Shown: piece after piece, positions 16,886 to 41,277 of the stretch
How positions within the stretch are numbered: the first letter of the stretch is position 1
Layout of the letters: every line of letters begins with the position of its first letter
From: Hormiphora californensis
Taxonomy: Eukaryota; Animalia; Ctenophora
NCBI GenBank assembly: GCA_020137815.1
Contig: CM035354.1
Span: 1,798,001-1,862,000, forward strand
Direction of reading: 5' to 3'
Length of the DNA: 64,000 nt
Notes under the pieces: generated by a model
Database searches by the model: none
What the model saw: only the letters and a program-made list of their open reading frames with translations
Told to the model about the DNA's origin: nothing
Made by a program: the position numbers and the translations under genes

Positions 16886-19306
16886 CTATGAAGATACAGC
16901 ACCGACCAAGACCAAACCGGCTTGGTTACACGATACCATCTTAATAGAGCCCTTGACAGTCACTGTTTTGATGGGTTTACTGTGTAATTTGCTGTGTAAC
17001 CGGGTATCCCACAGGGCCACTGACCCCTGAGCATCACCCGTCACCAGGACGTTCTCATTTAAAAACTCTAAACACTCAACAATATTAGTGTGTTGTTTAT
17101 GGCGATGAATTGTTATTGTTATTGTTGTTACCATGGTAACCATTGCTAACAGGTGCTGCCTTCTCCACCTGTGTATGTCCGAAGATTCTTAGTAGTACCA
17201 ATGTCAAACAAGGAAATGTCCCCGGAATTAGGGCCGCAGCGAACAGCTTGCCGTTAGGTGAAACAGCAATCCTTGAAACGAGACCAGTGGGTACAACCCT
17301 CACACAATTCCCACTGCTCACATCCCACACCCGACAGCTAAGGTCCTCACTTGCGCTGACTAAATAGCATCCGTTTGGATGGAAGGCTGAATGGGTAACA
17401 GGGCCCTCGTGTCCTACTAGAACCCGGAGAGAGGAACGTAGGTCAGTTCTCCAGAATCGTACAGTTGTGTCGTGTGAAGTGGAGGCGAAGTAGGAGGTTC
17501 ACGGGGGAGAAGGAGAACGTGATAGACGGGCCATTTTCCGTGACCGTGGTATTTCTGGGCGATACCTAAGGGGAGGGGGTGTGTTAGTGTTTGTAAGGTA
17601 CTTTGCTGTGGCTGTTGTTTGTTAGTTGATGCTATGGCACTGTCAGAAAAATGCTCTGACCGCTGTTCTTGAAAGAAATGAGAATAGGTTCAGGCCAATG
17701 CTCTGACGGGCTATGCAAGACTTGTTGTACACACACTCATACACTTTGTGTAAAGTGCATGCTCTAATACACTTGTTTCCTCACTATACACTTGATCAGA
17801 AACAACATGGAGTGCTAGCCAAGTAAATCTCTCTGCCCCCCCCCCTCTGTATCTCTCCCCCCCTCTCTCTGCCCCCCCCCCTCTGGCCTCTCTCTCTCTC
17901 TCTCTCTCTCTAGTCTCCCTCTTTATCTCTCCCTCTTTGTATCTACCTCTCTCTCCAAACACTCACTATTTGTTAAAAGATTCCACAGTATAACAGATGA
18001 GTCTCGGGAACAGGACAGAGCGAACTTTCCATCCTTGTGTACTGTCACGCAGTAAACTGGACCTGTAACAAAGTGGTCATGGGACGATTATTAGACTGGA
18101 TTTTATTCTGGTTGAAATTGAAGGAGGGGACAGTCAGACAAGGAAAGAGGGACGGATAAACAATTATACCGTCTCTTCTAATTCTGTCCCCCTTTACAGA
18201 TTCCCAGTTCGCTTCCCCTGCCCTAGTGACTTTAACCCCAAATTGATCGTACCTGAGTGGCCCCGTAGCTCCGTATAAGGCAGCTCACTCGTCCCACCAT
18301 CCACACACTGCTCTGGTACAAACGGTATCTCCGGCTTGGGAATCCTGTTTTCCGTAACACTTTCCTGACCACCCACTCTCCAGCGGTAAATAACTGAATT
18401 CCGTCCAGCAACAAGGAGAGTCCCGTTGTCAGGGGAGACTGCCATAGCAACCACATTGTCTCTATTCGTCACTTTCAAAGTCTTCACAAAACTAACCATG
18501 TTCCCGCCTAAACCCATATCTAGGGCACAACATGCCTTTTGAAGGGCTGTCCGGGGTTTGCTATCCACCCCCGTTTTGGGTACCTGTTCCGATTTGATAT
18601 CAAAAACAAAGTTCTGATTGATAACCGACAAAACAGATAACCAGTTCTGTTTGGATATTAGATCAATAATGTGATCGTAAGTTGACCGAGAGAGGGAAAT
18701 GACATGTTTCGTGTTGCAATACTCCGGTTTGTCAACCTCATTCGCGTGTGGAAGGATCTTATAATCAACCAGTTTGGCCAGGAAGTCAATGTAGACCTCC
18801 TTGCATTGTCGCTGACGCAGTTCGTGATATAGAAAGACGCACAGAGGGGGAAGGAAGGATGTCAGTTCTATACGATGTAAGTCAGGAAGATTTTCCGTGT
18901 ATTTTCGGAGAGTCAGCACATATTTCAGATAGTCCACTTGTCCGGATTCCAAGTAAGCGATCGGTGTGCTGAGTGCCCCCTGAAAGAGACGGATTCAGTT
19001 TCTCGGTATCAACACTGTTTACACAACTGAGTGGGGACGGTTGGGTATTTGGAACGCGCATCCGAGTAACTCTGGCGCGACACGCGCACAAATACACACA
19101 CAATAAGGCGTATGTCGGCGCGCCCTACTGTAACGAACCTGTTTGGCAGCTGAGTTTTTCAGGGTCTGCAAATCGACAACAAGTCGTGGAGTCGATGATT
19201 GAAGGGCAGCAACGGTGTTGCAGATAACGTCGTAGGAGGTGTTATTATTTTGATGGTTGTTAAGGTGGTCACCACCCTCGTCCAGTACCTCCTGCTTCAT
19301 CACCAT
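16886..19306 (-). CDS. TAF5/TAF5L-like protein (NTD2 domain plus WD40), multi-exon; some boundaries approximate
   Basis: [35 protein letters not shown] (NTD2-like); [48 protein letters not shown]. Confidence 0.75.
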
Positions 19307-19319
19307 ACATGCTAAATGG

Positions 19320-19456
19320 GAGAGAGAGAGAGAGAGAGAGAGAGAGAGAGAGAGAGAGAGAGAGAGAGAGAGAGAGAGAGAGAGAGAGAGAGAGAGACAG
19401 AGAGAGAGAGAGAGAGAGAGAGAGAGAGAGAGAGAGAGAGATAGAGAGAGAGAGAG
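19320..19456. repeat. (AG)n microsatellite forming the pyrimidine tract upstream of the TAF5L-like acceptor
   Basis: Read directly; on the minus strand (CT)n precedes cccatttAG. Confidence 0.95.
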
Positions 19457-38880: not shown

Positions 38881-39930
38881 AATAGGTTGCCAGTCTGCTG
38901 GTGCACTAAAAACACCGCTCACCATCTCCTCTGTAACCTCCTCCAAAGTTGCAGGGTTCCACCTTGGATTATTGTCCTTGTCCACCAACAACGCCCTGAC
39001 ACCCTCCTGAAACTCTCCCAAGGCAAAGGTCGGATCCGCAATCTGGACCTCCATCCTGAGACACTCCGTAAAGTCGAGGGAGCGAGAGAGGTGTTGAGTT
39101 CGGTGGGCTATACAAAGGGCAATCGGTGACATGGTTGATACAGTCTTGTCAGTTGCTGCAGCGAATTCAGTGTCGCTAGCCTGTAATCGGGAGCGGATCT
39201 CCAGAACCGATGGTGCAGAGAAACACTTTGAAATCTCCAGCAGATTGGACTGGAATGTCAGCTTCGGGATATCATCATCATCAGGCTGAAAAGACTCCAA
39301 ACATTCCACTAGCTCACCCTCACTTCCACATGCAAGTATACCCTCCCTGAGTTGGGGAATTCGGTCCGTGAAGTGCGTCACAAAATCCAAGTGAAGGGCA
39401 TCAGCACCCCTGGTTCTGTTGCCAGTCAGGGCGAGGTACATACCAACATCACCAAGCCTGGATAGGAAATACGTGGCACCCGCATCTGGGTAAAATCCAA
39501 TCTTGGTTTCAGGCATGGCAAACATAGATCGAGGAGTGCCGACTCTGTATCGGCTGTTACAACACAACCCCATTCCTCCACCCATCACAATACCATCACA
39601 AAGGGAGACAATCGGTTTGGGGAAGGTTTTCACTCGGTGGTGCATCTGATTTTCACGGGCCATGTTTCCTAAATTCACTATATCTCCACCAGCACAGAAA
39701 GCCTTACCACCCGCTCCCTCCATAAGGACAATGTCCACACTTTCATCCTTTTCAATTTCTTCCAACCTCGCTATGACTCTCTCCACCATTTCATGATTGT
39801 AAGAGTTCAGGGCTTTAGGCCGGTTCAGCAATATTGTAGCTACCCGGCCGTGCTGAGAGAATTCTGCCACATGCGATAGAGATCGTGAAGGAGTGGATAC
39901 GAGACGACGAAATTGTCGCGTGAGTAACAT
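38878..39930 (-). CDS. HIBCH: 3-hydroxyisobutyryl-CoA hydrolase paralogue (350 aa)
   Basis: LNRPKALN, AFCAGGDI, GIVMGGG, AMPETKIGFYPDAG, EGVRALLVDKDNNPRW. Confidence 0.92.
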   Translation of the reverse strand: MLLTRQFRRLVSTPSRSLSHVAEFSQHGRVATILLNRPKALNSYNHEMVERVIARLEEIEKDESVDIVLMEGAGGKAFCAGGDIVNLGNMARENQMHHRVKTFPKPIVSLCDGIVMGGGMGLCCNSRYRVGTPRSMFAMPETKIGFYPDAGATYFLSRLGDVGMYLALTGNRTRGADALHLDFVTHFTDRIPQLREGILACGSEGELVECLESFQPDDDDIPKLTFQSNLLEISKCFSAPSVLEIRSRLQASDTEFAAATDKTVSTMSPIALCIAHRTQHLSRSLDFTECLRMEVQIADPTFALGEFQEGVRALLVDKDNNPRWNPATLEEVTEEMVSGVFSAPADWQPI

Positions 39931-40173
39931 AACGCAGCTCTGAAAAAGAGGAAAGCGAATGATATTATGCTAGCATTATACACGTCTTGTTGAACACGTG
40001 TTTTACAAAACTATTAGTAACTTTAGAATGTAAAAACAATAGTTAACCTCGTATATTCATACAGACAACATCAAGAAAAATATATCGCACCTAACTCAAG
40101 AAATAAATTATGATTCCGAACAAAACCTTAAAAAACATCACTCTTCCCAAAATTCCAGTTCACTGGAAAGTGT

Positions 40174-41277
40174 TTATAGTGGTTTCCATTGCTTGCCAGA
40201 AGACTCGAAGTATCGATCTACCATCTCCTGTGTTACTTCCTCCACAGTGCCGGGTTTCCAGGCCGGACTATTGTCTTTGTCAACAAGCAGCGCACGGACA
40301 CCCTCTGTAAACTCTCCACTTCGATAAATTTCCGAAGCTGCAACGAACTCCCGTGCAAAGCACTCCTCGTAAGAGAAATTACCCCCCTCGGAGAGTAATT
40401 TGTGTGTGACAACGAGTGACCGAGGGGACATTCGCCGGAGAGTTTTCAGCAACTTTACAGCAAACTCTGATCCGTCTTCTTCTAATCGGGAGAAGATTTC
40501 AAGAACAGACGGAGCGGAGAAACAGTGCTTGATAAGATCAACCTGGGGTCCGAGGGTAAATGGGCCAGGAATTGGACTCTCGTGGCTCGCTAAAACCTCT
40601 TCAATGGTGTCCTCATCAGATGCCATGATAGCAGATTTTAGAGCAGGCAATTTCTCCATCTCGGTGTAATGGGTGGCTATCCCGAGGTGTTTTAGATCCG
40701 CTCCCTTAATCCGATGTCCAGTTAATCCGAGGAACATTCCATAGGGTTGCTCCAATCTTGACAAAAAATAAGATCCGCCAACATCGGGGAAATAACCAAT
40801 AGCGGTTTCTGGCATTGCATAAAGAGTACGCTCCGTTGCCACCCTGTATTTTCCGTGTAGAGACAAACCGACACCACCGCCCATTGTAATACCATGGATA
40901 AGTGAGACGTATGGTTTAGAGTAGGTCCCAATCATATAATTCATCTGGAATTCATCGTGGAAAAATGTCAGGGCAGCAGAGTCGTCTGCCGCCGATGTCG
41001 TTATTGATACAACGTCGCCACCAGCACAGAAAGATTTCGCGCCCGATCCCTCTACGCACACAACGCCGACACTCGGATCAGCATGCCAGGTCATCAGGTT
41101 GTCCCTTATTTGGTGAACCATATTTAAGTTAATAGCATTTAGAGCTTTTGGACGGTCCAGGGTAATCAATCCGACCTTTCCTTCGCGTGTAAAGTGGACC
41201 TCCTTTGCTGCAGTTGCCATACTTCGCATCGACAGGATGACTGGTTTGGCGAGTTTCGATGTAATTCGACAAGCCAT
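40174..41277 (-). CDS. HIBCH: 3-hydroxyisobutyryl-CoA hydrolase, canonical copy with a mitochondrial-type presequence
   Basis: LDRPKALNA, FFHDEF, GITMGGGVGLS, AMPETAIGYFPDVG; first ATG at 41277. Confidence 0.93.
   Translation of the reverse strand: MACRITSKLAKPVILSMRSMATAAKEVHFTREGKVGLITLDRPKALNAINLNMVHQIRDNLMTWHADPSVGVVCVEGSGAKSFCAGGDVVSITTSAADDSAALTFFHDEFQMNYMIGTYSKPYVSLIHGITMGGGVGLSLHGKYRVATERTLYAMPETAIGYFPDVGGSYFLSRLEQPYGMFLGLTGHRIKGADLKHLGIATHYTEMEKLPALKSAIMASDEDTIEEVLASHESPIPGPFTLGPQVDLIKHCFSAPSVLEIFSRLEEDGSEFAVKLLKTLRRMSPRSLVVTHKLLSEGGNFSYEECFAREFVAASEIYRSGEFTEGVRALLVDKDNSPAWKPGTVEEVTQEMVDRYFESSGKQWKPL

Follow-up and report, generated by a model that had tools for sequence, protein, structure and literature searches.

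We analyzed a 64,000-nucleotide (nt) stretch of the genome of the ctenophore Hormiphora californensis (GenBank assembly GCA_020137815.1, contig CM035354.1, positions 1,798,001 to 1,862,000; hereafter "the window", numbered from its first letter), in which 12 reading frames lie head to tail on the minus strand between positions 16886 and 41277. The messages of this cluster likely receive their 5′ ends through trans-splicing of a spliced leader (SL), and its inner part likely gives rise to a polycistronic RNA that starts at an upstream promoter, the 24 kb probably comprising two or more units; we hold this combined reading with a little more than even confidence. The evidence for SL processing of a real cluster is good, and that for a conserved polycistronic core is fair. 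The polycistronic part would extend at least from PYCR–MLH3 through the HPS4-like gene and probably from PIGX to TAF5L, and the HIBCH/Ig-like head is most likely a separate or later-added unit. The head-to-tail layout, the leader on an internal gene in relatives, and the conserved linkage together make it likely that a portion of the run is transcribed into a single RNA, which is then cut into separate messages.

The run begins at the ATG of HIBCH1 (41277) and ends at the stop codon of the TAF5L-like gene (16886). In the 5′ to 3′ order of the minus strand, it comprises HIBCH1, HIBCH2, HIBCH3, Ig-like, PIGX, LST8, PYCR, MLH3, CTC1-like (OB-fold), CHST, HPS4-like, and TAF5L-like, separated by stop-to-start gaps of 243, 466, 234, 325, 269, 881, 195, 466, 436, 482, and 419 bp (median 419 bp; overall range 195–881 bp). 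A first-pass annotation had described 12 co-oriented, tightly packed genes with gaps of mostly ~195–480 bp; all 12 frames were indeed located on the minus strand with both ATG and stop codon, and 10 of the 11 gaps measured 195–482 bp. None of 16 plus-strand open reading frames (ORFs) in or beside the run gave a credible Pfam match, which indicates that no opposite-strand gene interrupts it. Co-oriented and closely spaced genes with none on the opposite strand are the layout expected of an operon. The features of the run are listed below, with the acceptor AG and its distance to the ATG for each gene.

41326..41550, minus strand: candidate promoter region of the first unit, CpG-rich with A/T tracts, 5′ of HIBCH1 (CpG observed/expected 1.6–1.9 in 150-bp windows)
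40174..41277, minus strand: HIBCH1, intronless, 367 amino acids (aa) (Pfam; AG at 41299 or 41284, 21 or 6 nt 5′ of the ATG)
38878..39930, minus strand: HIBCH2, a diverged duplicate, 350 aa (Pfam; AG 9 nt 5′ of the ATG)
36937..38411, minus strand: HIBCH3, a recent copy of HIBCH2 (94–96% identity over two 300-nt blocks; ~430-nt insertion; AG 9 nt 5′ of the ATG)
35844..36702, minus strand: Ig-like membrane protein gene, two overlapping frames (lead under 0.9; AG 11 nt 5′ of the ATG)
35676..35850, minus strand: CpG-rich patch in the Ig-like/PIGX gap, a possible internal promoter (weak; 15 CpG per 325 bp vs 6.7 expected, corrected p = 0.04)
34769..35518, minus strand: PIGX (Pfam; AG 3 nt 5′ of the ATG)
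32190..34499, minus strand: LST8, about five exons, model incomplete (PDB match, E = 8 × 10⁻¹³ over 212 aa; AG 1 nt 5′ of the ATG)
31343..31802, no strand: inverted-repeat insertion resembling a miniature inverted-repeat transposable element (MITE), in the LST8/PYCR gap, the longest at 881 bp (127-nt arms, 92% complementary)
30324..31310, minus strand: PYCR, two exons, 163-nt intron (Pfam; acceptor G at 31310, ATG at 31308, AG-to-ATG distance 1 nt)
26185..30151, minus strand: MLH3, three exons, the conserved downstream neighbor of PYCR (Pfam; ATG at 30128, acceptor 22 nt 5′)
23830..25726, minus strand: gene for an OB-fold protein (CTC1/POT1-like lead) with two exons (AG 7 nt 5′ of the ATG)
22047..23405, minus strand: carbohydrate sulfotransferase CHST (Sulfotransfer_2; Pfam; AG 11 nt 5′ of the ATG)
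19726..21595, minus strand: HPS4-like gene with a longin domain and no introns (AG 30 nt 5′ of the main ATG, with a five-codon upstream ORF between)
16886..19312, minus strand: TAF5/TAF5L-like (NTD2 and WD40), multi-exon, last gene of the run (Pfam; AG 5 nt 5′ of the ATG)

Pfam supports the names HIBCH (three copies), PIGX, PYCR, MLH3, sulfotransferase, and TAF5/TAF5L, and PDB supports LST8. Three further names stood only in part: CTC1-like is an OB-fold lead for which a PDB search returned no match, Ig-like is a lead as listed, and HPS4-like was reached only via longin_1 matches, seen in 4 of 7 homologues scanned and above the cut-off in 2 of these. Structures predicted from single sequences for the CTC1-like and Ig-like proteins could not be used, having pLDDT (predicted local distance difference test) values of 34 and 36, respectively. 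HIBCH1 is 96% identical to the EukProt protein sb/3463716, whose naming style we take to be that of Pleurobrachia bachei, and 65% identical to ACHWQZ_G005162 of Mnemiopsis leidyi; PYCR and MLH3 agree. HIBCH is present as three tandem duplicates, and because HIBCH2 and HIBCH3 arose recently, the run holds ten gene families.

With a matrix derived from 30 of the window's intron acceptors, chosen by eye, an acceptor-like AG (a score of 2 bits or more no farther than 30 nt from the start) was found at 11 of the 12 run genes as compared with 6.9% of 389 non-coding ATGs (p = 2 × 10⁻¹²). A pyrimidine tract and AG had been claimed 1–11 nt before the ATG of the named genes, and each quoted distance proved exact. 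Such an unpaired acceptor just 5′ of each start is expected of an operon, yet is not specific to one. Between acceptor and main start, an out-of-frame ATG was observed on the minus strand for Ig-like (36707), MLH3 (30138), HPS4-like (21593), and TAF5L-like (19310); read from the sequence, these four would constitute short upstream ORFs after SL addition.

The leader itself is present in the window. A 33-nt SL stretch occurs exactly at 41724–41756 (plus strand) and 54948–54980 (minus strand), with none in 100 shuffles and 0 expected, and a decayed third copy lies at ~53709–53751 (score 42 vs at most 32 in 15 shuffles). The two exact copies belong to the following features.

41717..41756, plus strand: SL exon copy heading a retroposed-looking ORF, an exact match to the published leader; it lies outside the run and shows the leader
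54948..54988, minus strand: second exact SL exon copy, also matching the published leader, with no GT after it

Their sequence is identical to the ctenophore leader printed by Schultz et al. (2021, PMC8527503), the available text of which reports it for 56% or more of the Iso-Seq reads from Hormiphora and counts 718 genomic copies. The window copies, the published leader, and the pile-up of RNA contigs described below agree that the host uses a spliced leader.

Two related ORFs on the plus strand, 41717–42420 and 53709–54699 (46–52% identical), are each directly headed by an SL copy (exact and decayed, respectively), and the former terminates in (AAT)n; both resemble retro-copies of mobile-element RNA that had been trans-spliced. 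At 54900–54988 (minus strand), the SL exon copy is followed by a short hairpin instead of GT, which we take to recall a hammerhead core. Rfam gave nothing at gathering score across the window and only chance-level matches near this second copy. An intact reverse-transcriptase frame of 1,096 aa with a PHD/C1-like finger (43567–46857, plus strand; Pfam) lies 1.8 kb from an SL copy and presumably resembles CRE/RLE-type non-LTR (long terminal repeat) elements.

The leader was next sought at gene starts in the RNA of relatives. Run X1 is regarded as such a relative because it matches the window genes at only 80–90%. It gave 501 contigs on 22000–41900, most of them piled on the SL copy, and 17 on 21500–41400, where the leader copy falls outside, so that it informs on few gene starts. 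One X1 contig with a loose end at 31290 (minus strand) carries the last 8 nt of the leader, AATTTGAG, followed by 4 nt and by an ATG with five codons whose register agrees exactly with the PYCR start of the window. Another skips 298 nt with 135 nt between, meaning that the 163-nt PYCR intron is absent. A Joint Genome Institute (JGI) contig, L001, opens with a leader-like sequence that ends in TGAG, followed by a single base and the PYCR ATG, an offset identical to that in the window, and then runs through PYCR without its intron, a 239-nt AT-rich gap, and a complete MMACHC frame with an AG 1 nt 5′ of its ATG. L001 is called only a likely ctenophore sequence because the PYCR tree, in which rows P0154 and P0156 were disregarded as exon-1 fragments, has no non-ctenophore animal outgroup. 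A further contig, L002, is a spliced PYCR contig that retains 89 nt of unspliced sequence upstream of the AG-a-ATG, carries no leader, and ends short of the MLH3 start; it fits either an outron or an intercistronic piece. The earlier suggestion to map SL-containing reads to the acceptors was thereby borne out in relatives and for PYCR alone, the seventh and hence an internal gene of the run, with the SL end (last 8–12 nt of the leader) lying 4 nt (X1) and 1 nt (L001) before the ATG in one contig each. The neighbor of PYCR in L001 (842–1932) is MMACHC in place of MLH3, suggesting that neighbors are exchangeable.

Linkage in other ctenophores separates a core from the head of the run. PYCR and MLH3 of M. 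leidyi are ACHWQZ_G008997 and ACHWQZ_G008998, with consecutive tags and accessions on one 18.5-Mb sequence, and a 1,320-aa Mnemiopsis-like model (P0215) is PYCR fused to MLH3; their order and strand are therefore as in the window. In other records, genes were taken as co-located when the sizes of their longest contigs were identical in bp, and contigs below 5 kb were dropped. By this measure, 9 of 12 PYCR contigs and 6 of 8 HPS4-like contigs match an MLH3 contig, and 11 of 19 MLH3 contigs match either; several of these stem from different assemblies of one species or of near relatives, the total amounting to about six lineages by 90% clusters. Small shared contigs bound the distance to 5,849 bp for PYCR with MLH3 and 14,981 bp for MLH3 with HPS4-like, and all three genes occur together on a 31,032-bp contig whose MLH3 is 45% identical. 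Persistence of this core is notable because colinear blocks between Hormiphora and Mnemiopsis elsewhere contain at most four genes, according to the text available from Schultz et al. (PMC8527503); linkage of PYCR, MLH3, and HPS4-like was kept while the surrounding order was lost. The synteny that the first-pass annotation proposed to check thus holds for these three genes in several ctenophores and fails for HIBCH, which lies on another M. leidyi chromosome than PYCR–MLH3. Only 1 of 9 HIBCH contigs matches a core contig, and this is a whole Bolinopsis chromosome on which the HIBCH accession is 879 from that of MLH3. The HIBCH head is possibly a young addition in this lineage.

In the mechanism that we propose, RNA polymerase II would continue across the gaps, which are short and AT-rich. 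Inside each gap the upstream message would be cleaved and polyadenylated, and the spliceosome would join a capped ~44-nt leader to the pyrimidine tract and AG 5′ of the next start, so that leader joining would re-cap the downstream RNA. We infer that the SL is added to the remaining 11 genes and that read-through occurs in this species, and likewise infer the number and place of the promoters. One of five candidate poly(A) hexamers is present in 9 of the 11 gaps, which has little meaning in AT-rich DNA.

A tentative alternative is that each gene has its own compact promoter, located in the gap or at the 3′ end of the adjacent gene, and a short outron and is trans-spliced singly, its co-orientation being due to chance plus tandem duplication and the linkage being neutral. 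This would require the CpG-poor 195-bp gap between PYCR and MLH3 to accommodate a 3′ untranslated region (UTR), a promoter, and an acceptor, in a pair whose linkage persists in five other lineages; L001 moreover covers two whole genes, and the 460-bp inverted-repeat insertion ends 33 nt 5′ of the PYCR acceptor. Other observations speak for single genes or weigh against a polycistronic core. About 14 runs of at least 10 genes are expected genome-wide by chance among 14,265 randomly oriented genes (the Hormiphora gene count), and orientation alone was accordingly rejected as proof of an operon. Six of 8 flanking genes scored (two DRAM genes, Got1, the carrier, an unnamed gene, SRP14, UCK, and ARPC2) also carry acceptors, with scores equal to those of the run genes (p = 0.91). 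This is expected at flanking genes and cluster heads alike when most reads carry the SL, so that the acceptors indicate general trans-splicing and, being no operon mark by themselves, were likewise rejected as sole proof. Tunicates similarly use one SL for both operon and single genes, as far as the available text describes (PMC7986045). The RNA evidence is from relatives only (X1, L001, and L002); L001 is a single assembled contig that comes from a different species and has a downstream gene unlike that of the window, a 3′ UTR overlapping the outron of the neighbor could yield it equally, and the 89 nt upstream in L002 fit an outron as well. Linkage by equal size gives no order or distance beyond the size of the contig itself, covers 4 of the 10 gene families (PYCR, MLH3, HPS4-like, and HIBCH), and leaves partnerless contigs in the lists compared (HPS4-like of 73,597 and 31,869 bp, MLH3 of 501,828 bp); it can also persist neutrally, since short gaps would be small targets for breakage. 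Finally, the gaps exceed the cut-offs of 60 bp for Oikopleura and 250 bp for chaetognaths in the portions available of PMC7986045 and PMC12460157, though the window figures include 3′ UTRs.

More doubtful is the view that all 12 genes constitute a single polycistronic unit of 24 kb, transcribed from the CpG-rich region at ~41330–41550, which was the extent envisaged by the first-pass annotation. Its unbroken orientation, the 10 of 11 gaps below 500 bp, and the single strong CpG-rich head are in keeping with it, as is the division of the window into four directional blocks (3 strand switches among 18 genes; p = 0.006, uncorrected for the choice of window). CpG-rich patches with AT tracts precede HIBCH1, Got1, and the last plus-strand gene. 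Counted per 120 bp, CpG reaches 12 at the HIBCH1 head and at most 8 in 10 of the 11 gaps; the Ig-like/PIGX gap, with 11, has a head-like patch that argues against a single unit. This patch falls within the portion of the run that has lost linkage to the core and may represent a second promoter. It is a weak hint because 3 of 11 intron stretches equal it in CpG richness, in a table where three intron borders are approximate. HIBCH also speaks against a single unit, given its separate chromosome in Mnemiopsis, its distance in Bolinopsis, and its near absence from core contigs. A single 12-gene unit would exceed the operon maxima of 7 genes for Ciona and 9 for Paraspadella, as given in the consulted parts of PMC7986045 and PMC12460157. 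The idea of an SL-resolved operon is supported in part, by the leader in the window, the SL end on the PYCR orthologue, the conserved linkage, and L001, its likely extent being smaller than one 12-gene unit.

A bolder version, to which we give slightly less credence still, is that much of the ctenophore housekeeping genome is organized in long SL-resolved blocks; the window would then be four such blocks, and the run one unit in which the HIBCH copies and Ig-like were docked before an old core retained throughout the phylum. Hardly tenable is the explanation that the AGs, whose scores do match those of the window's intron acceptors, serve in the usual way as cis acceptors for introns of the 5′ UTR, with non-coding first exons upstream and no leader added, because the SL end is joined at the PYCR position in two relatives and the gaps offer scant space for a 3′ UTR, promoter, exon, and intron.

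Several further observations concern the genes of the head and the flanks. The HIBCH3 insertion (37363–37798, minus strand) is flanked by GT and AG, and its splicing would preserve the frame (346 aa); it is possibly a new intron derived from a mobile element, though its acceptor has no pyrimidine tract. At 38560–38640 (minus strand) a remnant of the acceptor and initial codons of Ig-like persists, carried along in the HIBCH2/HIBCH3 duplication. A public model (P0001) fuses HIBCH1 with a duplicate, and such fused models could be mined for ctenophore operon candidates. Frameshifts in Ig-like (36136–36338) and UCK (about 48550) may be assembly errors. The flanks at 3179–15834 and 47457–63520 are also directional, consisting of two DRAM genes (minus strand), a block of Got1, a Ca-binding mitochondrial carrier, and an unnamed gene (plus strand), and a block of SRP14, UCK, ARPC2, and a long zinc-finger-like gene (plus strand). 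The SRP14–UCK gap of 378 bp marks a second candidate operon. Additional long inverted-repeat (MITE/foldback-like) insertions were found at about 5690–7100, about 49260–49900, and about 56780–57090.

SL-resolved operons have been documented in nematodes, tunicates, chaetognaths, and Hydra, to the extent covered by the accessible text of PMC1657053, PMC7986045, PMC12460157, and PMC3273482. For ctenophores, a full-text literature search found none described; Derelle 2010, two genome papers, and the supplements of Schultz 2021 were outside its coverage and may mention them. The main text of Schultz 2021 (PMC8527503), as available, contains neither "operon" nor "polycistron" and draws no connection between the leader and gene clusters resolved out of common transcripts, and operon and trans-splicing terms are absent from the chromatin-loop paper. 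SL trans-splicing in ctenophores is already known, and operons there would be the new element. Ctenophores are probably sister to the rest of the animal kingdom. If true, operons would give a reason why some gene blocks persist where local order is otherwise lost, would account for fused gene models such as PYCR–MLH3, and would alter promoter assignment in ctenophore chromatin and single-cell data. PYCR–MLH3 offers a precise pair on which the question can be decided with existing long-read and H3K4me3 data.

Trypanosomatid clusters consist of strand-segregated blocks of unrelated genes with divergent or convergent switch regions, each holding tens to hundreds of intron-poor genes. The window shares with them the strand-segregated blocks and switch regions, whereas its blocks contain 2–12 genes and about 30 cis introns in 64 kb, unlike the very long, intron-poor, genome-wide blocks of that system. 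Nematode operons have 2–8 genes whose order is shielded from rearrangement, as that of the core kept here may be, and L001 resembles the dicistronic, cis-spliced intermediates known from Brugia operons and may be such an intermediate itself (Guiliano and Blaxter 2006, PMC1657053, in the part available). C. elegans differs in having a dedicated SL2 and ~100 bp from poly(A) signal to acceptor (same source), and the window shows no sign of a specialized leader. Similarity is also found with the RFC140-flp bicistronic operon of Hydra, for which Dana et al. (2012, PMC3273482, available text) used reporter constructs: it joins unrelated genes across a gap of <417 nt, has a pyrimidine tract and AG and an SL on the downstream gene, and belongs to a non-bilaterian host. 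That operon has two reporter-proven genes, whereas the run has ten families known from sequence and from the RNA of relatives. Tunicate and chaetognath operons likewise employ one leader class for operon and single genes and have housekeeping content, with intercistronic distances of 1–60 bp or <250 bp as compared with stop-to-start distances of 195–881 bp in the window (PMC7986045 and PMC12460157, available portions). By analogy, the run appears to operate in the manner of operons served by a general leader in Hydra, tunicates, and chaetognaths.

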